From: Thermoproteota archaeon | GTDB taxonomy: Archaea > Thermoproteota > Thermoprotei > Gearchaeales > Gearchaeaceae | Direction: 5' to 3' | Length of the DNA: 64,000 nt | Assembly: GCA_032249235.1 (NCBI GenBank) | Contig: JAVVGF010000001.1 | Coordinates: 192,001 to 256,000 of the forward strand | Program-made: the position numbers and the translations under genes | Notes under the pieces: generated by a model | The model's database searches: none | What the model saw: only the letters and a program-made list of their open reading frames with translations | Told to the model about the DNA's origin: nothing | Shown: piece by piece, positions 4,029 through 27,754 of the stretch | How positions within the stretch are numbered: position 1 is the stretch's first letter | Layout: each line of letters starts with the position of its first letter

Positions 4029-4031
4029 ATT

Positions 4032-4760
4032 TTAGGATATTAATTTTATGGATATTAATTCATATTTAATTTGTGTATTATCGGAATAAGTCAATATATA
4101 ATATACTAGAAAATCTTTTTCATTTATTTTAGTAACCCAAAACTCACTTTTATTTATATTATTTATTATATTTGTTGTACTATATTTATATATTGTTAAA
4201 TTGGTATAATAATACGATTTATTCTCTTTTCCATTAAAAGATATATTATTATTTAAATATTTTAATAAATCATCATTAAATCTTTCAAATGGAAAAATTA
4301 AAATTCGATCGATATAATTCCATAAATTTTGAGCATATTTACCTGTCACTTCTTGTTCGTCTCCTTTTTTTGCTTTTAATATTTGATATGAAGCTATATT
4401 AATCCAGAAAACATATATGTTTATCTCATTTGTAGAGTTCAAAAATATCTTTATTGTGTAAGCTAAAGTTCCATTTAAATTTTCTTTGCCAATGTATTGA
4501 TATATTATGTTAAAAAATAATGAAGAAGAGATAAAATAGCGATAGTTTATTATTTCAAAATACTCTACAAACTTTATTGCGCTTTGAATATCCAAAAAGT
4601 TTAATCTAATTGTCGGGTTAGAAGAAGTAGTTAACGTTGGAGTTGTAATAGTAGAGTTAGTATTGGGGTTGGAAGGAAAATTTCTGAAGGACAAGGTAGT
4701 TACAGATATAATAACAAAAAGAATAATAAGAGTTATGATTATTTTTGTTTTTCTCTTCAC
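4032..4760 (-). CDS. Membrane-anchored secreted protein, possible LolA/LppX-like beta-rich fold
   Basis: N-terminal basic + hydrophobic segment, Thr-rich linker, then YIGKENLNGTLAYTIK...FWINIASYQILK pattern; likely GTG start. Confidence 0.55.
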   Translation of the reverse strand: MKRKTKIIITLIILFVIISVTTLSFRNFPSNPNTNSTITTPTLTTSSNPTIRLNFLDIQSAIKFVEYFEIINYRYFISSSLFFNIIYQYIGKENLNGTLAYTIKIFLNSTNEINIYVFWINIASYQILKAKKGDEQEVTGKYAQNLWNYIDRILIFPFERFNDDLLKYLNNNISFNGKENKSYYYTNLTIYKYSTTNIINNINKSEFWVTKINEKDFLVYYILTYSDNTQIKYELISIKLIS

Positions 4761-4856
4761 ATGATTAACTCATTTTGTTTTTTAAAAATTTTTTCGTTGG
4801 TGTCTATAAAGAAATTACCGTAACATTTAATTCTATTGAGGATTAAAAATTCTATA

Positions 4857-5903
4857 ATGAAAATTGCTATAATAGGTGCAGGACCTGCAGGAGCTAATTG
4901 CGCTTATTGGGCTTCAAAAGAGGGTCATGAGGTAGTATTGTACGAGAAAAACACAGATTTTGCATTGAAGCCTTGCGGAGAAGGAGTATTTAAAGAAGCT
5001 TTTGAATATGTTCCAATAAAACCTGAAGAATCGAAGTGGTCTTTAAGCTATATTCATAGGGCTGAAGTTTATTATAAGAACAAATTATTACTCGAAACAG
5101 ATACCTCACCTTTTGATGGATATATTATTAACAAAAGGGCTTTCCTTAGAGAACTTGTAGAATATGCGATTGATGAAGGTGCTCGATTTCAAAAAGGGAG
5201 TTACTTTGTAGAAAAGGATGACTTTGATTTGATAATCGATGCAGGAGGCTACGTTTCAACTTTTGCAAGAAGAAAAGGTATTGTATATAATAATTATAAG
5301 CTAGCACCTGCTATACGCGGTTATGGGAAGTCATCTAAAATACGTGAAGATACCTTATACTTTGAAGTATATAATTTTGGTTATTCATGGATATTTCCTT
5401 ATGGCAAAGGATACTGCAACTTCGGAATAGGAGGACATACGAACAATAAATCGCTCATGCTCAATAATTTATATTCCTTTTTGAAATTATTCGATGTAGA
5501 AATAGTTTCTAAGATTGAAGGCGCTGCATTTCCATCAAATGGTCCTCTTAAGAAACTAACTTTAGGCAAAATTAGAGTTGCAGGTGACACAGCGGGTATG
5601 GTCATGCCTATAAGCGGTGAGGGAATAAGATTCGCCTTATATGCTGGTAAGATATGTTATAAAGAAAATTATGAAGAATTATTCAAACAAAAATACGGTA
5701 AAAAATTAGAAAACGGCAAAAAAATCTTAGACTTTTGGCTAAGTTTAAATGAAGAAGAACTTAAAATTTTAATAAAAGAAATGGATCCTTTGAAACTTAT
5801 CATGGCTTTTCTTGAAGGAGAAAAACCAAGTGTAATTGAAGGATTTAAGTTTTTGAAGAAACCTAACGTTATATTAAAAGCATTACAAAAAGTTTATATT
5901 TAA
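4857..5903 (+). CDS. Geranylgeranyl reductase family FAD-dependent oxidoreductase (paralog 1)
   Basis: GAGPAG, KPCGEG, YSWIFP, GDTAG...P.SGEGI; ATG at 4857 (MKIAIIG) preferred over track start 4836. Confidence 0.85.
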   Translation: MKIAIIGAGPAGANCAYWASKEGHEVVLYEKNTDFALKPCGEGVFKEAFEYVPIKPEESKWSLSYIHRAEVYYKNKLLLETDTSPFDGYIINKRAFLRELVEYAIDEGARFQKGSYFVEKDDFDLIIDAGGYVSTFARRKGIVYNNYKLAPAIRGYGKSSKIREDTLYFEVYNFGYSWIFPYGKGYCNFGIGGHTNNKSLMLNNLYSFLKLFDVEIVSKIEGAAFPSNGPLKKLTLGKIRVAGDTAGMVMPISGEGIRFALYAGKICYKENYEELFKQKYGKKLENGKKILDFWLSLNEEELKILIKEMDPLKLIMAFLEGEKPSVIEGFKFLKKPNVILKALQKVYI

Positions 5904-5911
5904 TATAAAAA

Positions 5912-6112
5912 TCAGCCTTCTTTAAACGGTTTTATTTTTGCGTCTCCTTCAAATCTCAGTGTTCCCAATTTTGCTTCGCCTAGATAAAGCGATACGGCAA
6001 GATTCAAATTAGCAGACCATCCTGTTCCTAACGCCATTTTTGCTACTTCTAATAAGAATGCAAATAGTGGGTTCAAAGTTAACTCGGCCAATGTTTGCTT
6101 TTCTTCACTCAT
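5912..6112 (-). CDS. Small hypothetical protein (66 aa), paralog of 6148-6321
   Basis: ATG start about 25 nt after an AAAGCTTTTAAATA BRE/TATA-like element; shares G-x-x-K-L-x-T-x4-G-x5-P with neighbour. Confidence 0.7.
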   Translation of the reverse strand: MSEEKQTLAELTLNPLFAFLLEVAKMALGTGWSANLNLAVSLYLGEAKLGTLRFEGDAKIKPFKEG

Positions 6113-6147
6113 TGACTAATAAGTCTTATATTTATTTAAAAGCTTTA

Positions 6148-6321
6148 CTATCCTTTCTTTGGAATGTATTCAATATTACCATTTATGACTACGGTGATCA
6201 ACTTTGTCTTGCCATAGTTTAAATCAATTTTAACATCTTTCATGCTTATTTCGAAATGTCTGTTCATTATTAGCATTATCAATTGCCTTATTACTTCCGC
6301 ATTGAATAGAATTTTCTCCAT
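6148..6321 (-). CDS. Small hypothetical protein (57 aa), absent from ORF track
   Basis: Manual translation MEKILFNAEVIRQLIMLIMNRHFEISMKDVKIDLNYGKTKLITVVINGNIEYIPKKG*; AAAGCTTTAAA TATA-like element about 25 nt upstream; similar to adjacent 66-aa ORF. Confidence 0.7.
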   Translation of the reverse strand: MEKILFNAEVIRQLIMLIMNRHFEISMKDVKIDLNYGKTKLITVVINGNIEYIPKKG

Positions 6322-6482
6322 AAGCAAAAATCTTTGTCATGTTTAAAGCTTTATCTATCTTTTTTCGTTTAATGTTTTATCATTTGTTTCCATACATGAT
6401 TCTTTGCTTAATCTTCAACTCAAGCTTTTTTTCTAACGTAATTACGGATAAGATTAATTTGTCTAAATTCATTTATTTGAAC

Positions 6483-7616
6483 GTGAATAAATGCATCATA
6501 ATAGGAGCTGGACCAGCAGGCTTAACCTTTGCATGGCATGCAGCAAGGAAAGGTTTGAATGTAACTGTATATGAGGGAAGAAAAGTTTTCGCAACGAAAC
6601 CTTGTGGCGAAGCGTTAGCTGGTGATTCATTAAGCGTACTTCCTTTTAAAATCGGTTATATGTACAAATGGATTTTATCGCCTATGCGTTTTGTCGAGCT
6701 CTATTACAACGGTAGGTATTATAGAACAATAAAATCTCCCTTCGGAGAAAACGGCTATATAATAAACAAAAGATTATTCCTTCAAGAGTTGGCGGACATT
6801 GTTGAAAAAGAAGGTGCTAAAATCGAAATGGGCAAGTTTTTTAAACCATCGCTAGATGACGCAGATTTGATAGTTGATGCGTCTGGCTATTTGACAGCTT
6901 CTCGTAATTATTTAAATTTAAGAGAATTATACAATAAAGAATACAGGAATATACCTGTTTTAAGAGATTATGCTGAATCAAATGGAATACTTAAGGAAGG
7001 TTATTTGCTCATCGATCTTTTAGATAGAGGATATTTCTGGATATTTCCTTATGGCAAAGATACTTATAATATTGGAATTGGAGGTCTATATAGCGGTGAA
7101 GAACTAAGAAAAATTTATGAAAAGAAAATTAATCAATTCGAACTTAAGTTAATAAAGAATACTAGACAGGGTGCAAGTGTATCTATAGGTGGAATTATAT
7201 CTAATCAAAGAATAGGTAAATATTATATTATTGGAGAAGCTGCGGGCTTCGTCATGCCAACAACAGGTGAAGGAATACGTTTTTCAATACTATCTGCATA
7301 TGAATATTTCAATAACAATAGCTTACTAAAGAACATTAGAAAAAGAATACAGTTCAATGCTAAACTTTTGAGACTGGCGATCGAATTGGATGATAAGCTA
7401 AAAAGCAAGCTAATTAGCCAAGCTCCTGAAGATTTGATCATGGTATTTTTAGGGGAAAAAAGTGTTTCTACTAATGATATTATAAAGTTCTTATCAGTCT
7501 TTTCAAGAAATCTTAGCACAAGTCTTCAAAGATCACTTTACTCTATTGTTCAATTTTTAATATCTAACAAAGTTGATACAAAAAAATATGTATTGAATTC
7601 TAATGTAAAACATTAA
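6483..7616 (+). CDS. Geranylgeranyl reductase family FAD-dependent oxidoreductase (paralog 2)
   Basis: GAGPAG, KPCGEA, YFWIFPYG, GEAAG...PTTGEGI; GTG at 6483 is the likely start (6339 extension has no homologous sequence in paralog 1). Confidence 0.85.
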   Translation: MNKCIIIGAGPAGLTFAWHAARKGLNVTVYEGRKVFATKPCGEALAGDSLSVLPFKIGYMYKWILSPMRFVELYYNGRYYRTIKSPFGENGYIINKRLFLQELADIVEKEGAKIEMGKFFKPSLDDADLIVDASGYLTASRNYLNLRELYNKEYRNIPVLRDYAESNGILKEGYLLIDLLDRGYFWIFPYGKDTYNIGIGGLYSGEELRKIYEKKINQFELKLIKNTRQGASVSIGGIISNQRIGKYYIIGEAAGFVMPTTGEGIRFSILSAYEYFNNNSLLKNIRKRIQFNAKLLRLAIELDDKLKSKLISQAPEDLIMVFLGEKSVSTNDIIKFLSVFSRNLSTSLQRSLYSIVQFLISNKVDTKKYVLNSNVKH

Positions 7617-7646
7617 TATTTTTATGTAGAGATTTCCTTAAGTTTT

Positions 7647-10600
7647 ATGATGAAATTTTTGTCGAAGAAAGTTATAGTAGTCGCTTTGCTAATTATCCTT
7701 ATCTTAGGAATTCTGCTTTATTTTCTGCCAGACATCGGCTATATGATATTCTTTAAGAATCCTTCAATAGCTTTAGTAGGCGTTGAAGGTAAAGGAGTAC
7801 AAGGAGATTTCGTATTGATGAGCGCATTGCTTAACGTTACAAACAATGCAGGGGTATCTGTAGTTTTAAAAGAAGCGAATGGCGAAGTATATTATAAGGG
7901 AGATAAATTTGGAACTTTCAATTATAAAGGTTCTCTTTTCATACCTTCTAACGGTCAAGTCTCTATTAATGTTACAGTATTATTAGATTCTAAATCTCCT
8001 ACTTTGAAACAGCTTATTCAAGATATTCTAAAGAATAATTCCTCTGATATATCTTACAAAGCAAGCTTATTAGTTACATCTTCATTCTTCTTCTTAAGCT
8101 TTAGTAAAGAAGTAGAAATAGCTGGCAAGTATATACTTTACTTGAAAGACTTTGTAAAAGTAATAGGATGGGAAATAAACGTCAAAAAGATAAATTTAAT
8201 CTCCTCAAATAATAATCCCTTATTAAATGTAACAGTTAATGCAAAGAATTTATCTAGTTTAGATATTCTTATTAAACAAGCTAATATAACTATTTTTTAT
8301 AAAAAAGAAGCTTTAGGACATTCGAAATTGAATAATCAAATAGCCATAAAAGCTAATGAAAGTAAGGAATTGAGTCTTATCTTAAATTTAACTAATATTA
8401 ACTTATTAAGAGATGCGATTAGGGATTTAATAAATAGCTATTCTATAAGTTTTGATTATATTGCAGATTTAAAGGTTTATTCTTATTATTATTATTTAGA
8501 AACAAATTATACAATTAAGGGAAAGCAAGAATATAAACTATCAGAAGTAGCAAATGATTTGAGACTTAACAAAATAATTATAAACCAAAATAGTATTTTA
8601 GCAGATATCTCCTATTTTAATAATTTAGGTGTTCAATTCTTTGTCAAGGATGTAAATGCAAATATCTACTTTAATAATTCACTGGTAGGCAAAATTAATG
8701 CAACTATAAATAAAGAGATCATACCTGCTACGGAAAATCGATTTCTTATTTCAGCTATTCCAATTGATTTATCTAGTTTAATAGGCTTTATTTTGGATAA
8801 TAAGACGGTTAGACTATCAGTACAGGCTGACATAAGAGTATCAATTTTTAACGAGACTTATTTAGCTCATCTGAGTCTTGAAAAATCTATAAGCTTAGAT
8901 TATACCTTAAAAGCTAGTATAAACAACGTTAGATATGTTGCAGCCAATATTTTGGAAGTCGATGCAAATTTAATTGCTACTACGAATCTTATAACAGGTA
9001 ACTTCACATTGAATAGTGCAAGTTTCAATGCATATTTGAATCAAACTTTTGTAGGAGATGGGATATTACAGAACCCTACAAAAATTTATCTGAATAAACC
9101 TTCTCAAATAAAAATAAGAGTTTATCTACATAAAGATATCATTCCAATATTAATAATAAAATTGTTAACAAATTCTTCTTTTGATTTAGTTCTTAAGAAT
9201 GCCATATTTCAAGTTAATTTTGCAAATAACACATATCCCGTCAAGCCTAGCAAAGATATAATTGTTTCTGCTCAACCTTTTACTTTAGATATCAACATTT
9301 ATAATCCATCTTTCATTGCCTTATCTACTACAACAGATAATAAAATAGGAATTAAGGCAAGTGTAGCGATAAACATTCCGAATGTTTATAACTTACCTAT
9401 TATTATAAAGTCAGCAAATGTCACTCTTGTTGAAGATGAATTTGGACAAATAGGATATCTCTACATAACGAACGATCAACTTATATATCCACAGTATAAT
9501 CTTGTTGGCGATTTCATAGCAAATATAGATAAATCTAAGCTTCAGTTATTGATCCAAAAAGCTATAAATAACAACGGCCTTAATGTTACCTTTAAAGATA
9601 TCGTTATAACAGTATCTATACTTGACAAGACAACTACAATAAAGTTGAGTAAAACATTTGCATTAAAAGTACCTACACCTTTAGTTCTCGAATCTAATCT
9701 AGGAATTAAAAAAGTATCAATAGGGCCTTCGCCTAAATCTTTCTTGATAGACACAGATTTCACTATAAATCTAAAAAGTATGTCTGTTTCCAATGTATAT
9801 ATTAGCGACGCTCGGGCTCAAATATACTTTAAGGATAAACAGATTGGCTACGCGTACATAACAATTAACAGAGTTGTTATCAACTTACCTTTCACTTATA
9901 GTGGTAAGGCTTTAATTAACATTACAGACGAAGGTGCAAGCATGTTAGCTATTGAAATTTTAAAGCAAAATCCTATTACAGTAAGCATTAAAAATATTCA
10001 AGTTAATCTCAAAATCACAGATATACCAATTTCTATAGCTTTACCATCAAACATTGTATTTCAATCAACAATCAAGCCAGATATTAATATACATGTAAGC
10101 GATTTTACTATTCGTTCACCTGGTAACGTTATAGATGCGTTTGCCCAACTTAATTCAACTCTTATTAAATTAAACGTTGACAGAATAGATTCTCTTTCTG
10201 CAAATATTATCGATGAAAATGGGAAGATTTTAGGTTATATTTTAGGTGTTTCCGTAGTTAACAATCCAAATTATATATTTCAAGGAATGATTGAATTGCA
10301 ACTAACGCAGCAAGGACTTGATTCATTAGCACCTAAGCTAATGAATAACAATACTTTAATTATTTTCGCTAAAAATATTGTTATAAATGCTTATATTAAT
10401 AATGTTAAAATTTATATAAATGATCCTAATATATATATTATAAAAATCTCAACAGATTTTCAATATAATTATACTTTTAATATTATTGATTTAAATGCTT
10501 ATCCTCCTGGTACTTTGTTTAAATTGAATATAACAATCGATTATCAAATAAAGAATGGTGTTAATACACCTTTTAGTGTTATTAAAGCAACAATGAAAAT

Positions 10601-11291
10601 ATATAATTTAACAGATTTCTATTTAGGGGATGCTATAGTAGATAAGCCTGTATATGTTAGCTCTTTGTCTGGAAGAATTAATTTCAATGCTTCCTTCTAT
10701 TTACGACCTGAAGGAGCTCCTTGGTTTGCATCAAACCTCGTTAATAACGGTACTGTTAGGATTAAGATTAGCGAAATCTACGCTACTGTGAAATTTTTCG
10801 ATTATAACGTAACTGTACCTATAAAAGGTTTAACATATACATACAAAACCAATCCTGTAACTATAAAAATTGAAAAAATAACGATAAAGAGTGTTAATCC
10901 CTTCGCAAACAGCGCAGTGGTAGAAGCAACTATTTTAGTGTATAATCCATTTAAGTTCCCAGTTACTATTACCTACATGTCTGGAAGCAATTATAGTATA
11001 ACTTTCCAAATTTTCGAATCTCAAAGAGAAGCTCATCCAGGTTATTATCTAGGATATGGCTGGTATTCTTCACAGACTTATGTTCCTGCTTTAAGTAATG
11101 TTACTTTATATCCTGTAACTGTTGTATTAACAGATGTTCTACATTTATTCCTTCCTCCTCACGGAACGCTAGTCCCTTTACATACAAGTATATATGTCGA
11201 TGCTCTGAATGGAAGAGCAGGAATAAAACTATATGATCTTTACTTTACTTTTAAGTTTGAAAAGAGAGAAATATACGTGACTTATCCTTAA
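7647..11291 (+). CDS. Giant membrane-anchored protein with about 9 tandem LEA_2/WHy-like repeats
   Basis: N-terminal TM; about 130-aa repeating units (N-x-x-x-hydrophobic strand, Y..G hairpin, amphipathic helix, two strands); last unit has YNPFKFPVTI. Confidence 0.7.
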   Translation: MMKFLSKKVIVVALLIILILGILLYFLPDIGYMIFFKNPSIALVGVEGKGVQGDFVLMSALLNVTNNAGVSVVLKEANGEVYYKGDKFGTFNYKGSLFIPSNGQVSINVTVLLDSKSPTLKQLIQDILKNNSSDISYKASLLVTSSFFFLSFSKEVEIAGKYILYLKDFVKVIGWEINVKKINLISSNNNPLLNVTVNAKNLSSLDILIKQANITIFYKKEALGHSKLNNQIAIKANESKELSLILNLTNINLLRDAIRDLINSYSISFDYIADLKVYSYYYYLETNYTIKGKQEYKLSEVANDLRLNKIIINQNSILADISYFNNLGVQFFVKDVNANIYFNNSLVGKINATINKEIIPATENRFLISAIPIDLSSLIGFILDNKTVRLSVQADIRVSIFNETYLAHLSLEKSISLDYTLKASINNVRYVAANILEVDANLIATTNLITGNFTLNSASFNAYLNQTFVGDGILQNPTKIYLNKPSQIKIRVYLHKDIIPILIIKLLTNSSFDLVLKNAIFQVNFANNTYPVKPSKDIIVSAQPFTLDINIYNPSFIALSTTTDNKIGIKASVAINIPNVYNLPIIIKSANVTLVEDEFGQIGYLYITNDQLIYPQYNLVGDFIANIDKSKLQLLIQKAINNNGLNVTFKDIVITVSILDKTTTIKLSKTFALKVPTPLVLESNLGIKKVSIGPSPKSFLIDTDFTINLKSMSVSNVYISDARAQIYFKDKQIGYAYITINRVVINLPFTYSGKALINITDEGASMLAIEILKQNPITVSIKNIQVNLKITDIPISIALPSNIVFQSTIKPDINIHVSDFTIRSPGNVIDAFAQLNSTLIKLNVDRIDSLSANIIDENGKILGYILGVSVVNNPNYIFQGMIELQLTQQGLDSLAPKLMNNNTLIIFAKNIVINAYINNVKIYINDPNIYIIKISTDFQYNYTFNIIDLNAYPPGTLFKLNITIDYQIKNGVNTPFSVIKATMKIYNLTDFYLGDAIVDKPVYVSSLSGRINFNASFYLRPEGAPWFASNLVNNGTVRIKISEIYATVKFFDYNVTVPIKGLTYTYKTNPVTIKIEKITIKSVNPFANSAVVEATILVYNPFKFPVTITYMSGSNYSITFQIFESQREAHPGYYLGYGWYSSQTYVPALSNVTLYPVTVVLTDVLHLFLPPHGTLVPLHTSIYVDALNGRAGIKLYDLYFTFKFEKREIYVTYP

Positions 11292-13192: not shown

Positions 13193-13299
13193 CTAATCTT
13201 TAATGAGGATTTGTTATTTAAAGATATTTATTAAGATTCGATATCCTTTCATTCGTAATTACAATAAAGAATATAATCGAATGAAACATCTTAATATTA

Positions 13300-14571: not shown

Positions 14572-14574
14572 AAG

Positions 14575-17871: not shown

Positions 17872-17901
17872 TTAATTTAAAGACTATCTCTGTTTATAAA
17901 A

Positions 17902-20900
17902 CTAACGATACCGTACAGGTAAATTATTAACAGTATATTGAATTATAGTCTTTAAATTCCCCACCTTAATTGAAATCAATACTTGAATATCAACGTTCAT
18001 TTTTAGCGTGTCATTTTGAGAATTGTAATGTCTTAATACGTAAGAAACGGATACATCAGGTATGTTTATTTCTAAATCACTTATTATAGTTGATGAATTA
18101 GGTCCTAGTGTTATGTTGCTTAATTGCGTATTTCCTACAGGCTTACCATCCATTGAATCATATATATTTAAGATAGCCAAATCTAATTTGACGGTAAAAT
18201 TATAAGGATTTATTATTTTAATCGTAGATTTTGCTTTTATTTCGTTACCTGAAATATACATTACCTGAAATTCTAATATTTCAACTTGTACAGGCTTACT
18301 TTGGTAAGTAATCGTAAGATTTAATGGAAGGCTTGCTGTGTAATATTGATCCATCAAATTTACGATCACTATTATTTTATCGATGGTTACTTTTACTGTT
18401 TTGCCGTTTGCAATCAATGTAGCAATATAATCTAACCTAGGTCCGCTTAAAAGATTTAATTTTGCTGTTGCAATATAGGTATCCTTGCTTATTGGAATAA
18501 CTTCAGAAATGGTACCGTTTGCCACTTCAATTCTAAGCTCATCTTTAATAGTGAAACTAGCATTAACAAGCTTTGCATCTACAATGTTATTCGATATGGT
18601 GAGCCTAAATTTTACATATACAAAGTTATCGCTAATTGAAGGTGGAACATTTATATCTATTACGCTTACTTCAAAGCTCAAAGGCTTAATGTTTGGTATG
18701 ATTGTGATGAACACTGAACTTTCTGCAAATAAATCGTAATTTTCTCCTAATAGTGATATTGAGCCTTTAATGTTTTTACCAATAACAGTTGCGTTGTAAC
18801 CGAGAAGGATTTTAGCTAGATTAGTTTGGTTTTTATTCGTCAAAACTATCAAACCATTTCCTTTGAAAGAGGAATTAATATAAGATGCATTAGATAATTT
18901 AATATAACCTATTATGTTAGAAAATTCATCAGTTACATTTCCTTCAAAATTATTTACGCCAAACGGGACTTCAATTCCCTTTAGTTTCATATCAAATGAA
19001 AAACTTAATGTTTTGCCGTTTATTATATTAATATTGTTAAGATAAACCTGCAATAAAGGTAATAAAATTACATTTAAAGTTACATTTCTTATTAACAATA
19101 TAATACTAAATGTCCCAATTTTTACAGTTATATTTGCATCAAGTATAATTAAGTTTGTTTTTCCTTTTTCTAAAAAATCTTTGATCATCTTTCCAGTTAA
19201 ACTCTTTGATAATTTAACTACGCTAGTAGTGCTAAAGTTATATGATTGTTCATTAGATATGTATTGATTAATATCTTGTTTAAAATTTTCTAATACTTTA
19301 TCACCTTCGATTGTAAAAACATTCATGTAAACATTAACAAGGAAAAATTTTTCCACTTTTAATTTTGATTTTAGAGATATATTGAGATCAAGTTTGTATG
19401 AGCTATCAAAAGAACGTATGTTAATTAGATAAGCGTTTGCTTCAAGAATATCTAAAGGAGATATCTTTAGTAAAATATTCAAATTGGTTTGCTTTGAGAT
19501 CGTTTTGCCATATACATTTACTTTTAAATATCCTCCTTGGATTTGCAGTAAAAGCGAACCATTTTTTGCGAAATCTTGAATGAGAGGTTTAACATTAGGA
19601 TCGTTTACTCCCAAAGTTACTGTAGTAAAGAAATTAGATGAATTGGATAGATCAATCGGGCCATTTATTTTTTGATCGAACACCAGCTTCCCATTGTTGA
19701 AATTTAACTTAAACACTGCCTCGTCGATAGTCATTGGTATACCAGTAACGTTTAAAGAGAGAAAACTGAAATTGAAGCCAATAATGAGAGTATCTTTATT
19801 TTGATCATACATAATCGAATATGGTTTTACTCCTATAATGAAGCGGGCATAGCCCCAATCTAGATTTATTGAATACTTTCCTAATTTTAAATTAACTATA
19901 TCAGTTCCAAATGCTAATTTGGGCTGTTCAACAAAATTAAGAGATAGTTTAACAGTGGAATTTTTTAAAAATTCATCTACGAATAAATAAAAGTTATCTA
20001 TTATGGGTAATATTACTATTTTACTATATACAATACCATTTGATGCGCTCGAATCTGTTATTCTGAAGTCCGCTATATAAGTTTCATTCAAAATCACTTT
20101 ACCACTTCCACCTGCTAGGTTTATTCCATTTAATGGTAAAGATGCTATTTTGCTACTTAAATACCCTGTAATCTCTAATCTCTCTGGATATTTAAAATAC
20201 TTTATCGAATTTATAGTAAAATTAGAAAATGTTGGTATTTCAATATTTCTTGATAATGAAATATTTAATGGAATCAATATTGTTCCAAATTTAATTTTTG
20301 CATTTATAATTGAATTCATCAAAGGATTAGAAAAAATTATGTTACCTAAATTATTTATATAACTAGTAGAATTGTAAAATAAATTTATTATAAAATTTTG
20401 ATTAGCCTCAACTTCATAAGATTTATTAGAATAAAAGTGTATTATATCATTATTGTATATTTTTAAAACTCCACTTATATCTTGAATTATAAAGCTTGAG
20501 TTTAAGGGATTTTCGATAATTACATTGATTGTGTTTTTATCTATGCTCACTGATTTTATTGTATTATTTAACGAATATTGGTAAAGGAATGTCGAACCTT
20601 TTATTGTTGTTGGGATTTCAAAAAATAAAAATTTTGTATTTACATTACCTTCATAGCTGACTTCAATGTTTCCTTTAGAGAAAAGTCCATTCAAGACGCT
20701 ACTGAAATATTTGATATCTTCTTTATCTACGAAGGCACTTAACTTGATTGAGTTTTCACCTGAATTTATATCTAATGGGTTATTTATGGTAATTGTAGCA
20801 AATTTATTATTCTCATACAGTATGTTAATATGTCCTTTATTAATACTGATTGCTTGGAAATTATTTATGATAACTAATGACGCATCAATTACTAAATTGT

Positions 20901-21039
20901 CCCCCAATTGCTTTATTCCTAAAACTTTTACACTTTTTATTGAAGGCTGAAATATAAACATCGGAAATATTAGAAAGACGGAAACTATAATTACTGCAAT
21001 TAAAACTAGGGCAATTAATTTTCTCTTTCCTATACGCAT
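17902..21039 (-). CDS. Giant membrane-anchored protein with about 8 tandem LEA_2/WHy-like repeats
   Basis: Probable start MRIGKRKLIALV at 21039; N-terminal TM; ENPLNSSF and INPYNFTVKLD...ITLGPNSS motifs shared with neighbour. Confidence 0.7.
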   Translation of the reverse strand: MRIGKRKLIALVLIAVIIVSVFLIFPMFIFQPSIKSVKVLGIKQLGDNLVIDASLVIINNFQAISINKGHINILYENNKFATITINNPLDINSGENSIKLSAFVDKEDIKYFSSVLNGLFSKGNIEVSYEGNVNTKFLFFEIPTTIKGSTFLYQYSLNNTIKSVSIDKNTINVIIENPLNSSFIIQDISGVLKIYNNDIIHFYSNKSYEVEANQNFIINLFYNSTSYINNLGNIIFSNPLMNSIINAKIKFGTILIPLNISLSRNIEIPTFSNFTINSIKYFKYPERLEITGYLSSKIASLPLNGINLAGGSGKVILNETYIADFRITDSSASNGIVYSKIVILPIIDNFYLFVDEFLKNSTVKLSLNFVEQPKLAFGTDIVNLKLGKYSINLDWGYARFIIGVKPYSIMYDQNKDTLIIGFNFSFLSLNVTGIPMTIDEAVFKLNFNNGKLVFDQKINGPIDLSNSSNFFTTVTLGVNDPNVKPLIQDFAKNGSLLLQIQGGYLKVNVYGKTISKQTNLNILLKISPLDILEANAYLINIRSFDSSYKLDLNISLKSKLKVEKFFLVNVYMNVFTIEGDKVLENFKQDINQYISNEQSYNFSTTSVVKLSKSLTGKMIKDFLEKGKTNLIILDANITVKIGTFSIILLIRNVTLNVILLPLLQVYLNNINIINGKTLSFSFDMKLKGIEVPFGVNNFEGNVTDEFSNIIGYIKLSNASYINSSFKGNGLIVLTNKNQTNLAKILLGYNATVIGKNIKGSISLLGENYDLFAESSVFITIIPNIKPLSFEVSVIDINVPPSISDNFVYVKFRLTISNNIVDAKLVNASFTIKDELRIEVANGTISEVIPISKDTYIATAKLNLLSGPRLDYIATLIANGKTVKVTIDKIIVIVNLMDQYYTASLPLNLTITYQSKPVQVEILEFQVMYISGNEIKAKSTIKIINPYNFTVKLDLAILNIYDSMDGKPVGNTQLSNITLGPNSSTIISDLEINIPDVSVSYVLRHYNSQNDTLKMNVDIQVLISIKVGNLKTIIQYTVNNLPVRYR

Positions 21040-21193
21040 CAATATTTTATTAGTTTCTTTCTTAAAAAGTATTGAGAATAAATTTTGAAATATCAAAGGG
21101 TGGTTATTTTTCTCGATTTGCCTTTCTTTAATACTATGGTAATACCCATAGTTTATGTATTAATTTTTTAAAGATGTCTGCGAAAGTGTTACT

Positions 21194-23911
21194 ATGAGAA
21201 GAATACTTCTTTCAATACTGATTTGTGGATTAATACTGGGGGGCTTATTCAATATTCAATCCTCTTACGCAAATGGCCAATATCAATCTTCAAGCTCAGG
21301 CGGTCAATGGGTTAGTCGCTATAATTCGCCTTATAATAATCCCTATTCTGAAAAACTCTATAGTTCCATTGCAGATAATTCATCTATCTCACTTTCGAAT
21401 CTAGGTGATCCTAATGGAGAAATCGCTTCTAAAGCATTAATATACAACAATATCGCGTACTTCGTAACCAAATCTGTAAGTATTTACTCTTTAGATCTTT
21501 CAAGCTATAACTATAAATCTATGAATCTGTCATTATCAAATAATATACTAAGCTCTACTCCTGCTCTTGTCGGTGAAAATTGTAATACTATCGCTGCAAT
21601 AGATGGATTGTCTTTTGTTAATTTTATAAGATTTGGGCCGGGCTTGAGTATTTCATTGCTAAGAAAATATGGACCTTTGAATATTTATTCAAATCCTGTA
21701 ACGCCTAGCAATTCTAATTTTTTCATAACGAGCAATTCTTCTCCTTCAGGTTATATCTATGTTTTTGGTTGTGATGGAACTATTAACAATATATATATGT
21801 TATCACCTTATGAGCAACCTGAAAAAGGAGTTGCGGTTAAATCTAATACAATATACGTACTCACAAATTTTGGCTCTGTAAAAGCTATTGGTAATGTGAA
21901 CTGGAACGCCCAACTCGGATTGAAGTTTACACAAGAACCAGTTATCTATAACGATCGGATTTTCGTAAGAGGTGTAATGTATGAAGATGGTTCCGAAATG
22001 ATAGTAGCGTTGAATTCAACTAACGGCTCAACTATATGGTCTTTAAGAATTCCAGCAACCATACTAAGTCCGATGGTAATATTTCAAGATAGAATTTATT
22101 TCATAACCGAAGGACCTTATATCTACAGCCTTAATGCTTCAAATGGTGCTGTTCTAAAAACAAAGAAGCTTCAATCTATTTCTTTTACTGGTATTTCGCC
22201 AGATATGATAGCGATTTCAAGCGAATTGGTCTTCACAGGTATTTACAATGGCAAATTTTCGCTCGTTTATTATGATGTTATTGATGATTTGATCAATTAT
22301 GATTATTTGAATGCTAACTTAGGTAAACCAATAGGGATTAGTTTAGGTAATGGTAAAATTATTGTTACTTTTCAAAAAGGAATTGAACAATTACCCATAA
22401 AAGCTAAAGCTTCACTAAAAATCTATGTTGAACCCGCTTCATATAACTATAGCGTAAATATTAATGGAACAAGCTATATTATACAACCAAACAATACATT
22501 CATACTTTACCTCTTCCTCAAAAGACCTTCTTCTCTTAATTTAGAAATTAAAAATAAGATTATAATAAACGATCAGAAATATCTCGGATTTTATAGATGG
22601 GAAAACGTTTCACAAAGCAATTTCAATAAATCAACAGTTTACATTAATCAATGGGATTCAATTGTAGTTAAAGCTTATTATAGATATTATCTTTTAACAA
22701 ACTTAAATTTGGATTATAAAATCATAAGTAGTCAGCAAATCAACGTAACGCCTAAAATAAATATAGTTGAATACAATTCGACGAAAGTCTCACTTTTCCT
22801 TCCACAAAATACGACATCTAACTTCACTATTTATGCACAACCCGTAGTTGTGATTAACAAGACTTCAAGTCTTGTGTTTCAAAAATGGAGTGATGGAGAT
22901 AAAAATTACATAAGAAAGATTTATGTGCAGGCAGGTTCGACTGTTTATTTCACAGCACTATACTCATTATCTAATAACTATACGCTAACTTTAATAGTGA
23001 ATCCATCAAATTATGCTTCTAAAATTTTACAAAGTTTATCAACAAATTTGAATAATGTTACTTCTATGGTTTGGATAGTCCCTCCAAATACAAATGTGAC
23101 TTTTGAAATCAAGCAAACTATAATATCTTTAAATAGTACAGCTAGATTAGCATTTGCCTATTGGTCAGGCGATATTTCTTCTAACGACACTAAAATTACA
23201 TTTTCAGTATCTCATACCAACTTTACTATAGTATTAAATTTCCAATTACAAAAATTATTCATAGTAAAGCTAATTAATATAACATATTATAATAATCAAA
23301 TAATTAATAATGGTACTTCAACAATCTTAAGTAAGTGGTATTCTAGTTCAAATTATAATTACACTTTGAAAATTAATAAAATAATTTATTTAAATAAATA
23401 TGAAAGATTATTAATTTCTAATTATACAATAAACACTATTAATTCAAAAACTAATGAGACATCTAATTATATTATTTCTACGATAACTTTGAGTAGTGGA
23501 ACTACACTTATCAAAGTGGTATATGTTTTGCAAAAATACACACAGCTTCTAATTATTTTCAATGATCCAGAAGTTAAATATATATTTATAAATGGAACTA
23601 AAGAAGATATAATAAAAAACAATAATACTTATCTAGTAAATAAAACTATGTGGACTTCGAATAGCATAAAATTCTATATTGAGGCAGTTGAAAAGGTAAA
23701 ATTAAGCGATTATGAGTATATTGTTTTTAAATCTTTTAATAATACATCCTCTTCTTCGATCTCTGTGAATTTAAATCCGGGTGATAAAGTTACTTTGTAT
23801 GCTCAGTATCAAAGAGAAAATGTACTAGCTCTTTCGAGTAGCATCTTGGTAATATTGATATTGGTCATAGGTATAATGGTTATTGCCATTCTAATAAGAT
23901 GGTTGATGTAA
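21194..23911 (+). CDS. Surface protein with PQQ/BamB-like beta-propeller, InlB-B-like repeats and C-terminal TM anchor
   Basis: Signal peptide; PVIYNDRIFV...ALNSTNGSTIW, YSLNASNGAVL blades; F.KWSDG / FAYWSGD repeat motifs; C-terminal TM. Confidence 0.7.
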   Translation: MRRILLSILICGLILGGLFNIQSSYANGQYQSSSSGGQWVSRYNSPYNNPYSEKLYSSIADNSSISLSNLGDPNGEIASKALIYNNIAYFVTKSVSIYSLDLSSYNYKSMNLSLSNNILSSTPALVGENCNTIAAIDGLSFVNFIRFGPGLSISLLRKYGPLNIYSNPVTPSNSNFFITSNSSPSGYIYVFGCDGTINNIYMLSPYEQPEKGVAVKSNTIYVLTNFGSVKAIGNVNWNAQLGLKFTQEPVIYNDRIFVRGVMYEDGSEMIVALNSTNGSTIWSLRIPATILSPMVIFQDRIYFITEGPYIYSLNASNGAVLKTKKLQSISFTGISPDMIAISSELVFTGIYNGKFSLVYYDVIDDLINYDYLNANLGKPIGISLGNGKIIVTFQKGIEQLPIKAKASLKIYVEPASYNYSVNINGTSYIIQPNNTFILYLFLKRPSSLNLEIKNKIIINDQKYLGFYRWENVSQSNFNKSTVYINQWDSIVVKAYYRYYLLTNLNLDYKIISSQQINVTPKINIVEYNSTKVSLFLPQNTTSNFTIYAQPVVVINKTSSLVFQKWSDGDKNYIRKIYVQAGSTVYFTALYSLSNNYTLTLIVNPSNYASKILQSLSTNLNNVTSMVWIVPPNTNVTFEIKQTIISLNSTARLAFAYWSGDISSNDTKITFSVSHTNFTIVLNFQLQKLFIVKLINITYYNNQIINNGTSTILSKWYSSSNYNYTLKINKIIYLNKYERLLISNYTINTINSKTNETSNYIISTITLSSGTTLIKVVYVLQKYTQLLIIFNDPEVKYIFINGTKEDIIKNNNTYLVNKTMWTSNSIKFYIEAVEKVKLSDYEYIVFKSFNNTSSSSISVNLNPGDKVTLYAQYQRENVLALSSSILVILILVIGIMVIAILIRWLM

Positions 23912-24001
23912 TTTATGAGAATTTGGTATTGAAAGCTATTTAATAAAGATTATTGTTAAGTTCTCCAAAAGATTTAAATCGATAAAATCAAATGAGGTCA
24001 T

Positions 24002-24715
24002 ATGAATAAAAAATTTTTAGCCATTTTACTAGCTTTAATAATCATTAGCTTACAGCCAAATTTCGTAAGTGCTGAGAAGCAACAGGGAAAGCTAACGGCT
24101 AATTTTATGGAAAGCCGCAGTTTTGCTATAGGAACGATATCTTTGGGTATTAACTATGAAATAAATTACAATGTTGATTATAAAGCAGAAGTAGCAAAAG
24201 GTGATACTAACGATATCAATTTATCTCTCTATGGAGGTGTAGCTAATTTAACTTTTGGTTTTCAAAATCAAACATTAAACTATAATAGAACAATGAAGCT
24301 AGGCGAACAGGTTGCATTCAACGTTGGTCCTTTAAGATTGAATATTCTTCTAAAGGCTGAAGCACCAATAAATATATTAGGTAGCGCTAGTAGTCAATCT
24401 TCAATGGTGACTTTTGAAAATGAAGGACAGCAAACAATTAAAGTTAAAGTTAGCGATTCTGCTAATGTTGGGGATCTCATTAAAATCAGCTTACCGTTTT
24501 CTCTCAGAATCTTCATGGCTATTACTGCTCCGATAAGCATTTCTTTCTTTGAGTTAGGTAAGGTAAATCTGTTTCCAGAATTATCATTACAATTCAAAGT
24601 TACAAGTAGTTGGTTTGAGAGCAACTTTTATCTTATATTAGCTCTTGTAATTGCAGTGATTATCATGGCAGCTTTAGCTATTTTATTTATCATGAGAAGA
24701 AGAAAGAAGACATGA
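24002..24715 (+). CDS. Secreted beta-rich protein with C-terminal TM anchor
   Basis: Signal peptide (VSA), C-terminal hydrophobic helix + RRRKK. Confidence 0.7.
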   Translation: MNKKFLAILLALIIISLQPNFVSAEKQQGKLTANFMESRSFAIGTISLGINYEINYNVDYKAEVAKGDTNDINLSLYGGVANLTFGFQNQTLNYNRTMKLGEQVAFNVGPLRLNILLKAEAPINILGSASSQSSMVTFENEGQQTIKVKVSDSANVGDLIKISLPFSLRIFMAITAPISISFFELGKVNLFPELSLQFKVTSSWFESNFYLILALVIAVIIMAALAILFIMRRRKKT

Positions 24716-24966
24716 AAGCTATCTTATTTGGCATTTTGTTTTGTTTCGTGGGCTCTATAATGTTTGTCTATGCGGTTTACAATATCTTATTAACAATTTA
24801 CAATTACCATGTTATAATTCCTACATCTATTACAGAATTCATAAACTATTATTTTGGTGAAACTTTTGTAAGTATTAACGATATTTTATTTCTAGGTGTT
24901 TTTGGAGCAATAGGTGCCATACTATTTTACTTCGGTCTATTTATTGTCTATCTCTTTAAAAAATAA
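24712..24966 (+). CDS. Small two-TM membrane protein
   Basis: Two hydrophobic segments; ATGA overlap with upstream gene. Confidence 0.65.
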   Translation: MKAILFGILFCFVGSIMFVYAVYNILLTIYNYHVIIPTSITEFINYYFGETFVSINDILFLGVFGAIGAILFYFGLFIVYLFKK

Positions 24967-24983
24967 AAGAATGAAATTTTAGT

Positions 24984-25262
24984 ATGACTATGGAAGAGAT
25001 TAATAGAAGCAGAAAATTTGGATATGTATGTATTATTCTTGGTCTAGGCTTAATAATTCTTTCTGCAGGATTAGCCTTAAGAGAATACTTCTTTTATAGA
25101 GCAACCATAGGCGAGGTCTCGAGCGTCCCTTCCATATTAGGTTTCCTTGCTACCGAATTGCTTGTTTTAATAGTGAAAGTTGCATTTTTAGGTATTGTAA
25201 TTGCAGGTAGCTCTATATTACTAAGATATGGATTAGAGCTAATAAAGGAAGTTAAAAAATGA
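24984..25262 (+). CDS. Small two-TM membrane protein
   Basis: Two hydrophobic segments; tight operon spacing. Confidence 0.65.
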   Translation: MTMEEINRSRKFGYVCIILGLGLIILSAGLALREYFFYRATIGEVSSVPSILGFLATELLVLIVKVAFLGIVIAGSSILLRYGLELIKEVKK

Positions 25263-25645
25263 CGCTTAGACATGAAGTATTGATTTCCATTTTATCTGTT
25301 TTCATAATATTTTTATTATTCAGTCCTCTTACTCTTTTTTTACAAGACTTAGCGAAAGGGCACATATATTTTAAGTTTCAACATAAAGGTAATGAGATAT
25401 TATTAATCCTTGTTAATGAAGGTAACAGTTATCTTAGCGATATAACTTATAATGCAACTGCTCAAGATATATACAATAATTTATACACAAAGACTGGCAA
25501 AATTGATTCTTTCAAAAAAGGTGATAATATAACTATTAAAATACCTTTAAAAATACCAAATGCGATAATAATAAAAGTTGATTTGAAAATATCTGCAAAA
25601 ATTAATGGACTTTATAGATTTGATTTTGAAGTAAAAAGAGAATGA
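25259..25645 (+). CDS. Membrane-anchored single beta-sandwich (LEA_2/Ig-like) protein
   Basis: N-terminal TM then LVNEGNSYLSDI...KIDSFKKGDNITIKIP; ATGA overlaps on both sides. Confidence 0.55.
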   Translation: MTLRHEVLISILSVFIIFLLFSPLTLFLQDLAKGHIYFKFQHKGNEILLILVNEGNSYLSDITYNATAQDIYNNLYTKTGKIDSFKKGDNITIKIPLKIPNAIIIKVDLKISAKINGLYRFDFEVKRE

Positions 25646-26127
25646 GCAAGGCCACTGACATAATTAAGGCTTATCTTATTATAACCCTTATTGAAGGCAT
25701 ATTGAGAACTATAATGATATACATTGTTCTTATAATCTTACCTGCTGTTATTCTCGTACGGCCTGTAGTTATAACTAAAACTTTCATAGACATAATGATT
25801 ATTTGCATCGCAGCTTCAGCATTTAGAATTTACGTTATTTCTCCTATACTTATAACACTTGCTTATTTTTACAGTTTCTTAGTTTCTGCAAATACATTGG
25901 ATTTCGGATACTTAAGTTATAATTGGGAAGTATATACTTTTCAAATATCCTTCTTTCTAGACATGTCGCCTTTAGTTTTTGCTCTATTTGCCACGATAGT
26001 CATTCCTATGAGTATTTCTGCATTTTATTCTTATTATATTACACAAGCAACAGGAAGTATAAGAAGGCCTCCAGTACCTCTTACAGGGGCTACTATAAGG
26101 GATATAATTCTTGAAATATTACGTTAA
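25642..26127 (+). CDS. Integral membrane protein (about 4 TM)
   Basis: Mostly hydrophobic; ATGA overlap. Confidence 0.65.
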   Translation: MSKATDIIKAYLIITLIEGILRTIMIYIVLIILPAVILVRPVVITKTFIDIMIICIAASAFRIYVISPILITLAYFYSFLVSANTLDFGYLSYNWEVYTFQISFFLDMSPLVFALFATIVIPMSISAFYSYYITQATGSIRRPPVPLTGATIRDIILEILR

Positions 26128-26167
26128 ACACTTAAATATAAATTAAAGGTTTTACAATAAATTTTCA

Positions 26168-27754
26168 GTGAGCTGGGAGATTATTCTCTCAGCTGATCGC
26201 GGATCATTTACAGATTATAATGGCTCTAGCGTGCTGGGGTATGTTGCATGTATGCCTTCTCGCCTTGTACCTAGATTTTTTATGGATAAGTTCTTTACGC
26301 CTCCTATTAAAAGCGATGAAAGTGGAAGAGCTCTTTATGCTCCCTATGCTTTGAGGAAAATCGAAGCTACACTTGTCAATAAAGGTTTTAAAGAAGTAGC
26401 TGTCGTTTCTCCTGAAAGATTAAAAGATGTAGTAAGTAAAAAGACAAAAATTTTGGGATTGAGTGTTCATGATCCGTTAGGTATTGATCCTGTAAGCACG
26501 AAGTTATGCATGATATTTGGAGGAGGACCTAGCTGGACTGCAGTATTTTTTGAAGAAGTTGGTAACCTTGTTAATGAATTGAAAAAGAAATATAACTTCA
26601 AAGTTATAGTTGGAGGGCCTGCTGCTTGGGAATTAATAAAAGAAAGACCTAATTGGATTGATGTATTATTCATTGGAGAAGCTGAACACTCTTTGCCAGA
26701 AGTAGTCGAAAACCTATTAAATGGTAAAGAAGCACCTAAAATAGTATATGGGAAGGATGCTAAAATAGATGAAATACCTCCTATAATCAATCCTGCAAGG
26801 CTTGGAGAAGTACAAATAACAAGAGGTTGTCCTAGAGGATGTGCATTTTGTAGCATAACACCTGAAACTTTCAGATCAATTCCTTTAGAAATTATAAAAA
26901 AAGAAGTAGAAATTAATTTGAAGGGAGGTTGGAATAGAGTTGAATTCATAACAGACGATCTAATGCTCTATGGTTCTAACAAGCTTAGAGTTAACCACGA
27001 TGCAATAACAAAGCTGTATAGCGAAGTAATGAAAATGAAAGTCGATGGTATTTGGTTCCCACATATTTCAGCACCTCCTGTGAAAGAAAGTCCTAGAACT
27101 ATTAAAGCAATCTCTGAAACAGCTCATTATAGCTTCGATAGGGCAGATGCTCCAGTTGTAGGTCTTGAAACAGGAAGTGAAAGAATATTTGTTAAGTACA
27201 TGCGTGCTAAATCTTTTCCCTACGAGCCAAGAGAATGGAGAGATGTCATCATAGATGCTACTTCAATAATGAACGATAATTATATATTTCCTTGTTATAC
27301 GATGACAATAGGATATTTTGATGAAACAGAGGAAGATGTAGAGTATAGCATTAGATTAGTCCAAGACATTATAGATCATCAATTCATTGCTTGGATATTT
27401 CCCTTGCCTGTAATACCGATGGCAACGAGTAGAATAAATAAAAATCCATTTCCTACTTTAAAGAGAATGCCTAAAAATTATTGGGATCTTTTATATATTT
27501 CTTGGTCTTACAATTTAAAAATTACAAGGAAATTAATACCAACCTTAACAGGAGGTATTAGAAATAAGATCATAAATAAGATAACAAATTTAATGATAGA
27601 CAAGATCTTTAATAATATCGAATGGATATTTTATCAGTTAAAAGAGACTAAGGGTCTCAGTTCTCTTAATTATAGTAGCTTAAACCTTAATAACATAATA
27701 GGAATATTAAGGTCGATTACTTGGTTATTTAAGCTAAGTTTTAAACCGTTATGA
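26168..27754 (+). CDS. grsB: Radical SAM enzyme with B12-binding-like N domain; GDGT ring synthase (GrsA/GrsB family, most like GrsB)
   Basis: CPRGCAFC motif, VIVGGP, APYALRKIEA, HDPLG; N-terminus WEIILSADRGSFTDY..SSVLGYVACMP recalled as typical of Sulfolobales Grs proteins (not search-verified). Confidence 0.65.
   Translation: MSWEIILSADRGSFTDYNGSSVLGYVACMPSRLVPRFFMDKFFTPPIKSDESGRALYAPYALRKIEATLVNKGFKEVAVVSPERLKDVVSKKTKILGLSVHDPLGIDPVSTKLCMIFGGGPSWTAVFFEEVGNLVNELKKKYNFKVIVGGPAAWELIKERPNWIDVLFIGEAEHSLPEVVENLLNGKEAPKIVYGKDAKIDEIPPIINPARLGEVQITRGCPRGCAFCSITPETFRSIPLEIIKKEVEINLKGGWNRVEFITDDLMLYGSNKLRVNHDAITKLYSEVMKMKVDGIWFPHISAPPVKESPRTIKAISETAHYSFDRADAPVVGLETGSERIFVKYMRAKSFPYEPREWRDVIIDATSIMNDNYIFPCYTMTIGYFDETEEDVEYSIRLVQDIIDHQFIAWIFPLPVIPMATSRINKNPFPTLKRMPKNYWDLLYISWSYNLKITRKLIPTLTGGIRNKIINKITNLMIDKIFNNIEWIFYQLKETKGLSSLNYSSLNLNNIIGILRSITWLFKLSFKPL

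Follow-up and report, generated by a model that had tools for sequence, protein, structure and literature searches.

A young gene cluster of GGR-family flavoproteins and giant LEA_2-repeat proteins, built by relocation in a Thermoproteota archaeon

The stretch of DNA analysed here, 64,000 nucleotides long and called the window throughout, belongs to a Thermoproteota archaeon (order Gearchaeales; GenBank assembly GCA_032249235.1, contig JAVVGF010000001.1, positions 192,001 to 256,000 of the forward strand). Between window positions 4032 and 27754 lie genes for three flavoproteins of the GGR family (GGR1 to GGR3), three giant membrane-anchored proteins made of LEA_2-like repeats (giantA to giantC), two other large surface proteins, a small orphan protein, five small membrane proteins and an orthologue of the radical SAM protein GrsB. 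An earlier note, made from the sequence alone, had read the whole region as a lipid-handling locus, in which the structural proteins would form a pathway for ether lipids or other isoprenoids. Comparison with related genomes corrected this first reading. The region contains a young, selected gene cluster that arose by repeated relocation, and one GGR paralogue, GGR3, is linked through its distribution with a new family of giant rods built of LEA_2-like repeats. GrsB, and with it tetraether cyclisation, stands outside this system, and nothing shows lipid transport.

Genes of the locus and their products

The map of open reading frames (ORFs) bore out the ORF positions given by the earlier note. 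The features are as follows (sequon, N-X-S/T).

4032-4760, minus strand: orphan protein of 242 residues with an N-terminal hydrophobic segment and 7 sequons; left edge of the cluster
4836-5903, plus strand: GGR1, accessory GGR-family flavoprotein, TIGR02032 as best match
6339-7616, plus strand: GGR2, accessory GGR-family flavoprotein, TIGR02032 as best match; directly upstream of giantA
7647-11291, plus strand: giantA, 1214 residues, N-terminal anchor and 9 LEA_2-like repeats; 31 sequons
11288-13192, minus strand: surface protein of 634 residues, signal-like segment at the N-terminus and membrane anchor at the C-terminus (by hydropathy); 26 sequons
13300-14571, plus strand: GGR3, GGR-family flavoprotein, above the TIGR02032 cut-off
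14575-17871, minus strand: giantB, 1098 residues, N-terminal anchor and 8 LEA_2-like repeats
17902-21096, minus strand: giantC, 1064 residues, tandem paralogue of giantB; 7 repeats detected
21194-23911, plus strand: surface protein of 905 residues (the propeller protein) with a signal segment, a PQQ-like beta-propeller, a beta-rich region and a C-terminal anchor; 32 sequons
24002-26127, plus strand: five small membrane-protein genes, a separate older block together with GrsB
26168-27754, plus strand: radical SAM protein, GrsB orthologue, outside the relocated cluster

In the comparisons, G000 denotes the window's own genome, with its contigs numbered C1, C2 and so on. G001 is its nearest relative (95% complete), G002 belongs to the same genus, G005 and G007 to another genus, and G045 to another class. 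L032 is a metagenome contig of a related organism with 80-90% amino acid identity to the window. The genome sets searched comprised 41 relatives (G000 counted), 401 genomes of the phylum, 12 of the order and 26 around G045.

As the earlier note had recognised, the three flavoproteins belong to the GGR family: TIGR02032 was the best match for GGR1 (129.7 bits, E = 1.7e-37), GGR2 (121.5 bits, E = 5.6e-35) and GGR3 (173.4 bits), of which only the last passes the cut-off of 158.8 bits. With NF041080, the equivalog model for digeranylgeranylglycerophospholipid reductase, they scored 77.3, 71.9 and 97.9 bits, respectively, below its cut-off of 580. A better candidate for the membrane-lipid GGR is encoded elsewhere in the same genome, at C1:54230-55381 (TIGR02032, 222.7 bits; NF041080, 180.7 bits). 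Because of this better match and the lack of equivalog scores, we regard GGR1, GGR2 and GGR3 as accessory paralogues. A FixC-type GGR paralogue lies next to ETF genes elsewhere in G000.

The translations of all three proteins read GxGxxG near the N-terminus (GAGPAG or GGGPAG), and YxWxFP appears as YSWIFP in GGR1, YFWIFP in GGR2 and YGWIFP in GGR3. Both are listed as GGR motifs where PMC10821996 treats them, the former for binding of flavin adenine dinucleotide and the latter for the catalytic cavity. As read in the translations, each of the three also has a cysteine about 35-40 residues past GxGxxG (PCGEG, PCGEA, VCSGG), which may correspond to the catalytic cysteine, Cys47 in the Sulfolobus acidocaldarius enzyme (structure 3ATQ).

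GiantA, starting at 7647, follows GGR2, whose ORF ends at 7616, in keeping with the earlier description of one GGR gene upstream of and co-oriented with a giant. At its other end, the homologues of GGR2 in relatives align from residues 33-51, leaving about the first 45 codons of the ORF unmatched; the alignments place the true start probably about 45 codons downstream of 6339. With this later start, about 570 bases probably separate GGR1 from GGR2. The gap (5904-6480) holds a minus-strand ORF of 66 residues (5912-6112), and one contig of an RNA library lies there, at a depth of 31.

Several flavoproteins beside one housekeeping lipid GGR, with the motifs kept, resemble the uncharacterised archaeal GGR paralogues treated by Rao and Driessen (2024; PMC10821996), whose passages on such paralogues propose that they saturate polyterpenes (quinones, polyprenols, dolichol). 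The window paralogues differ in that they sit among giant surface-protein genes, one of them sharing the distribution of these, whereas the neighbours discussed in those passages are ferredoxin and ETF genes or proteins conserved within the taxonomic order, not surface proteins.

The three giants, predicted earlier as paralogous repeat proteins of 1000-1200 residues, are 1064-1214 residues long, each with an N-terminal hydrophobic anchor. They are collinear, and pairwise BLASTP comparisons gave E = 2e-30, 3e-8 and 3e-8 at 21-23% identity, giantB and giantC, also collinear, matching at 3e-8. The Pfam family LEA_2 (PF03168, cut-off 25.4 bits) matched giantA with 34.3 and giantB with 58.1 bits. 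GiantC had no Pfam match, yet seven copies of a repeat profile seeded on the LEA_2 region were found in it. By the iterated profile, tandem repeats of about 120 residues, nine in giantA, eight in giantB and seven in giantC, cover the whole extra-membrane part.

In an AlphaFold model of giantB from an alignment of 14 rows (pLDDT 79), an N-terminal helix precedes a series of beta-sandwich units, each containing one helix. When this model was compared with the PDB by Foldseek, the best 50 matches were generic multi-Ig or macroglobulin-domain proteins with TM scores of 0.09-0.16, and no lipid-transfer fold was among them. A word-based protein search with giantB returned two near-identical proteins; relatives surfaced in a hidden Markov model (HMM) search of 1.84 billion representatives, which yielded 457 matches at E <=0.001 and 22 at E <=1e-30. 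As judged from such sequence matches, the full-length giants are a small family within a wider set of multi-LEA_2-domain proteins.

Known LEA_2/WHy proteins are small, have one or two domains and are tied to stress tolerance. With the LEA_2/WHy proteins (PF03168) of plants and bacteria, the giants share the domain family by Pfam and, in the model, the beta-sandwich with one helix per unit. Unlike them, they hold 7-9 detected tandem domains on a membrane anchor.

The 905-residue protein is a beta-propeller surface protein, as proposed earlier, matching PQQ_2 (PF13360) with 33.3 bits against a cut-off of 27.6. The 634-residue protein matched no Pfam or NCBIfam family. The three giants, the 634-residue protein and the propeller protein carry 26-32 sequons each. 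Among the 1146 ORFs of at least 150 residues in G000 (median 0.37 sequons per 100 residues), these five surface proteins are five of the top seven by sequon count, and the 634-residue protein ranks second in density. Membrane-anchored, sequon-rich extracellular proteins together with an AglB gene, which is present in G000, recall the N-glycosylated surface and S-layer proteins of archaea, although no lattice-forming S-layer protein family was matched. Since G001, the nearest relative, lacks all these surface proteins, they are not an essential wall.

Three large sequon-rich ORFs of 929, 1164 and 1049 residues, with 33, 22 and 20 sequons, respectively, lie shortly before the window, at C1:180048-190158. 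They adjoin the gene for the binding protein of an ABC transporter, and C1:180-216 kb as a whole is a long stretch of surface-protein genes. A tblastn search with the giants gave no match to these three ORFs.

Other proposals on individual proteins were not confirmed. As regards tiny half-repeat proteins, the two small proteins compared (25259-25645 and 24002-24715) showed no relation to the giants' profile, with probabilities of 0.1 and 0.3% in hhalign. The 242-residue protein (4032-4760), called LolA-like, had no Pfam or NCBIfam match, its single-sequence model was unusable (pLDDT 41.5), and it found no match in five relatives; a language-model search gave a weak lead to DUF3108 (score 0.88). 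Likewise, families of the AsmA/TamB or LolA type had no Pfam or NCBIfam match in any protein of the region.

Assembly of the cluster from dispersed sites

Window DNA is present in sequencing runs labelled as hot-spring metagenomes. The junctions between 2500 and 22499 are spanned by hot-spring contigs that come from other studies. These run from the permease gene ahead of the cluster through the 242-residue gene to GGR1 and GGR2, from GGR2 through giantA and the 634-residue gene to GGR3, and from there across giantB and giantC to the propeller gene. L032 holds the propeller gene, giantC, giantB, GGR3, the 634-residue gene and giantA in the same order as the window. The bridging contigs together with the gene order of L032 ruled out misassembly. 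For the six genes shared by G000 and L032, the ratio of nonsynonymous to synonymous substitution rates (dN/dS) is 0.06-0.16 at dS 0.6-1.0, indicating that the cluster genes are under purifying selection. In one metatranscriptome run, contigs fell on 27 of the 30 bins of the cluster; contigs reveal neither the level of expression nor co-transcription, and the run may include carried-over DNA.

In G002, G005 and G007, the orthologues of the cluster genes are found at fixed, separate sites common to both genera, beside unrelated housekeeping genes. Eight genes thus come from seven sites, namely those of GGR1, GGR2, giantA, the 634-residue gene, GGR3, the giantB-giantC pair and the propeller gene. 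In G000, these old sites are in the following state.

giantB-giantC pair: between the Zn-ADH gene (C1:473711) and the CBS gene (C1:473273); empty, flanks adjacent
giantA: between C6:7914 and C6:6993; empty, flanks adjacent
GGR3: between C2:30391 and C2:29971; empty, flanks adjacent
GGR2: between C5:42712 and C5:42311; empty, flanks adjacent
propeller gene: between C1:313955 and C1:315280; empty, flanks adjacent
GGR1: between C1:112372 and C1:115476; pseudogene C1:114456-115445 with frameshifts and stops, 61% identical to window GGR1
634-residue gene: between C2:65593 and C2:63878; remnant C2:64878-65590 in three frames, covering the C-terminal 240 residues

At the five empty sites, the flanking genes are 2 to 50 bases apart (measured between ORF ends). 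The relatives retain what G000 has lost there. GGR1 is intact at its old site in G001, G002 and G007, and the GGR2 orthologues of the same three genomes adjoin orthologues of genes on contig C5. Homologues of the 634-residue protein occur in G002, G005 and G007, the last with an intact gene of 632 residues at the site of the remnant. The tandem pair of giantB and giantC is kept in G002, G005 and G007, and it was also found in the same context in 'Crenarchaeota archaeon SCGC AAA471-B05' (one locus, in a 4-row profile scan of named genomes), whose record is placed in candidate division YNPFFA by the NCBI taxonomy; YNPFFA locus tags also appear in a paper on NAG1, an uncultivated lineage. In G011, a giant and the GGR3 orthologue are on different contigs.

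In a tree built from six housekeeping proteins (2807 columns), the genomes group as ((G000,G001),G002), with G005 and G007 outside. This topology, together with the shared dispersed positions, makes the dispersed state ancestral and the cluster derived. The cluster 4032-23911 is therefore young, lineage-specific and built by relocation. It is not a neighbourhood conserved across lineages, since the clustered state is common only to the close relative L032 and the genes are dispersed in G002, G005 and G007.

How unusual such displacement is can be read from the loci of the relatives, in which each ORF of at least 70 residues was compared with the G000 proteome. Among 329 ORFs with collinear G000 flanks, 276 were collinear, 31 had no match, 18 mapped into the cluster (eight genes) and four mapped elsewhere; as these loci had been chosen for holding cluster homologues, the 18 are there by design and the four represent the background.

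Gene clusters are usually seen in their finished form. Here, the dispersed, the assembled and the empty-site state, as well as a pseudogene and a remnant, are found within one genus, which makes the cluster a rare natural test case for the ways in which gene clusters form and the reasons for it.

Co-distribution of GGR3 with the giants and its interpretation

The giants occur in five of the 41 relatives (G000, G002, G005, G007 and G011), in three genomes of the phylum sample of 401, and in one of the 26 around G045. Orthologues of GGR3, at identities of at least 42%, were found besides G000 only in G002, G005, G007, G011 and G045. In the sets searched, the giants and the GGR3 orthologues are thus confined to the identical six genomes. 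G045 is the only one of its 26 with a giant or GGR3, and G023 has a GGR3 relative of 37% identity and no giants. Among 5.8 billion proteins, the GGR3 orthogroup amounts to seven clusters at identities of at least 42%; a relative of GGR3 with 46% identity, P0298, is encoded on a contig of 1.375 Mb.

The nearest relative separates GGR3 from the other lipid enzymes. G001 lacks the giants, the propeller protein, GGR3 and the 634-residue protein. In G001 as in G004, the assembly covers both the site between the Zn-ADH and CBS genes and that of the propeller gene, and both are empty. G001 keeps GGR1, GGR2, GrsB and the small membrane-protein genes. Because G001 has these without the giants, GGR3 follows the giants, whereas GGR1, GGR2 and GrsB do not.

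The earlier note had tied its proposal to a linkage of the giants with lipid enzymes in other genomes, and no such linkage was found: a GGR or Grs gene is a neighbour in none of the nine giant loci of G002, G005, G007 and G011. Ten neighbours of giants were scanned with Pfam, and none was a lipid enzyme. Seven of them matched RadB-like ATPase, CBS, SfsA, DUF4382, TrmB, Zn-ADH and DUF1464; of the remaining three, one had sub-threshold matches only (PqiA, YajC) and two had no match. In G011 (L048, G011:C108, 6019-9983), the GGR3 orthologue (42%) lies 24 bases upstream of, and co-oriented with, the gene for a secreted protein of 844 residues. With an FG-GAP propeller, Ig-like domains (Big_7 and CARDB) and an anchor at its C-terminus, this protein has the architecture of the window propeller protein.

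Because of the co-distribution in six genomes and the gathering of eight genes from seven sites, we consider it an evenly balanced question whether GGR3 has a functional tie of some kind with the giants and the other surface proteins. The giants have their N-termini in the membrane and their rods of LEA_2-like beta-sandwich domains outside the cell, and we read them, with the 634-residue and propeller proteins, as a probable coat or scaffold of glycoproteins on the outer side of the membrane. From 8-9 domains, we would estimate a layer of about 30-40 nm. In this reading, the lipid that GGR3 (and perhaps GGR1 and GGR2) saturates would be a polyprenyl lipid required for making or retaining the coat, and the giants themselves would not convey lipids. 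Clustering would be favoured because the genes would be used, inherited and lost together.

The simplest candidate for this lipid would be a dolichol-type N-glycan carrier. To our knowledge, dolichol phosphate in its role as glycan carrier is the one biochemical link established between surface glycoproteins and enzymes of the GGR family. Where PMC10821996 deals with dolichol, a GGR deletion mutant of H. volcanii is described as unable to make saturated dolichol phosphates, and the dolichol phosphate of Sulfolobus as highly saturated. By analogy with these cases, dolichol may be put forward tentatively as the specific lipid linked to GGR3, an assignment that we consider doubtful.

On the broadest interpretation, GGR3, the LEA_2 giants and the propeller protein would constitute a previously unrecognised envelope system, in which a dedicated reductase makes the saturated isoprenoid that the rods need. 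This isoprenoid could serve the rods as glycan carrier, be a lipid that they bind or carry covalently, or form the matrix of an outer sheath associated with lipid. We offer this as a speculative proposal that is rather unlikely to hold in full. If it were true, selection would have been caught building a gene cluster from seven scattered loci, with the scars left at the old sites. Many archaeal GGR paralogues have no assigned use, and the co-distribution of GGR3 and the giants is a testable lead to a substrate, one that links isoprenoid saturation to the building of the cell surface.

Several observations weigh against the proposed tie of GGR3 to a surface coat, and to those given here must be added the broken operon, the gene directions and the GGR2 identities taken up below with the alternatives. 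None of the three GGRs reaches any equivalog cut-off. The AglB gene is on another contig, C4, and no glycosylation gene was found in the cluster. In none of the 9 giant loci outside the G000 lineage does GGR3 adjoin a giant. The propeller proteins of G011 and the window, despite their common architecture, show no homology by BLASTP or hhalign. Furthermore, the genomes compared are related and hence not independent, so that perhaps no more than about four or five separate gains or losses underlie the co-distribution.

The most serious alternative is neutral: the genes would have accreted at a breakpoint in a stretch rich in surface-protein genes, and GGR3 and the giants would merely belong to an accessory pool that was lost together in streamlined relatives. 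The left border of the cluster fits such an accretion at a rearrangement breakpoint. An Opp/Dpp-type ABC operon (binding protein, permease, permease, ATPase, ATPase) is intact in four of four relatives (G001, G002, G005 and G007). In G000 it is split, with one part at 1552-4028 of the window and the two ATPase genes at C2:90102-92153, and the cluster starts 4 bases past the second permease gene, which ends at 4028. The junction 4028-4032 is bridged by contigs of other runs, so the split is not a misassembly. In addition, the only co-oriented neighbours in the cluster are GGR2-giantA and giantB-giantC; the other genes alternate in direction, which excludes a single operon. The three sequon-rich ORFs just upstream (C1:180048-190158) and the presence of GGR1 and GGR2 without the giants in G001 also point toward accretion. 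However, displacement is otherwise rare, involving 4 of the 311 ORFs that do not map into the cluster, and all eight displaced genes came to lie within 20 kb. Order and reading frames have been kept between G000 and L032 over the divergence given above, at low dN/dS. Moreover, G045, of another class, has both GGR3 and the giants, alone among 26 genomes, and the pattern is specific to GGR3, as the distributions of the other three lipid enzymes of the region differ from that of the giants. Taken with these objections, neutral accretion seems to us possible but improbable.

Alternatively, the cluster might have been built in an unsampled near relative and have entered as a block, after which the native copies were lost, a history that would be compatible with functional coupling. 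In favour of such a transfer, the decayed copies of GGR1 and the 634-residue gene (61% and 34-40% identical to their window counterparts) are no closer to the window than the G002 orthologues are. Window GGR2 is 73% identical to the G002 copy and 62% to the G001 copy, and window GGR1 67% and 65%, both contrary to the species tree; for housekeeping proteins, the identity to G000 is 78.9% in G001 and 75.6% in G002. A simple vertical history fails to explain the GGR2 identities, and the pattern of GGR1 and GGR2 fits either faster change in G001 after the loss of partner genes or a block transfer from a near relative. On the other hand, fast decay of pseudogenes alone lowers identity, the donor would still have needed the relocation, and all window genes are closest to genes of the same genus. 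Nor do the borders of the cluster carry the marks of an inserted element: no meaningful direct or inverted repeats were found there, family scans of the window proteins revealed no transposase or integrase family, and ARAGORN reported no tRNA gene in the window. We therefore judge a block transfer to be distinctly unlikely.

A tRNA match far from the cluster, at 47656-47755, was given by Rfam (40.3 bits, 100 bases) and not by ARAGORN; an archaeal tRNA with an intron may lie there.

Least probable of all, in our opinion, is a conduit in which the giants, the propeller protein and the small proteins move ether lipids or other isoprenoids through the gap that separates membrane and surface layer while the GGRs and GrsB supply or modify the cargo: although all four recognisable enzymes act on isoprenoid chains by family assignment, GGR3 shares the distribution of the giants, and the giants with their 8-9 domains are long enough to span such a space, the giantB model is a string of beta-sandwich beads without a lipid-transfer protein among its best 50 Foldseek matches, Pfam gives the giants no family but LEA_2, the distributions of GrsB and of the small membrane proteins are not that of the giants, and the LolA-like assignment is unsupported. 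Of the lipid-handling locus proposed by the earlier note, a functional tie is supported as far as GGR3 is concerned, whereas the ether-lipid transport pathway is unsupported.

The neighbouring GrsB block

The earlier note was right in recognising a Grs-like radical SAM enzyme and small membrane proteins, the latter encoded by five genes at 24002-26127. The radical SAM protein (26168-27754) shares 66% identity at 100% coverage with the cluster holding Q4JC22 (saci_0240, Sulfolobus acidocaldarius), which is given as GrsB where PMC13747702 names it. It contains the CX3CX2C motif as CPRGCAFC, matches PF04055 with 44.1 bits, and scores 94.9 bits against a cut-off of 251 with TIGR04013, a B12-binding radical SAM family. 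Identity and motif thus liken it to GrsB of S. acidocaldarius, with the corresponding activity predicted from sequence; the difference is that the window copy stands outside the distribution of the giants. A paralogue at C1:387419 in G000 is 31% identical to it and may, by its sequence, be GrsA.

GrsB had been counted as a member of the system, which its distribution contradicts: G001 has GrsB without the giants, and G002, G005 and G007 have the giants without a GrsB orthologue. Of five relatives, only G001 holds an orthologue, and G002, G005 and G007 hold a paralogue of 33-39% identity. The genes of 24002-27754 and the CstA region that follows are in the same order in G001:C3, and from this conservation the block predates the cluster. 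GrsB and the five small membrane-protein genes therefore make up an older block that is distributed independently of the cluster and merely abuts it.

The idea that the small membrane proteins are general partners of GrsB was rejected, since 25642-26127 matched only its own genome, one of 201 genomes of the phylum, in a sample that excluded G001, where the block is kept.

The CstA gene itself (window 28864-30624) is interrupted by a single in-frame TAA at 30070-30072, giving ORFs of 402 and 182 residues, while that of G001 is one ORF of 564 residues.

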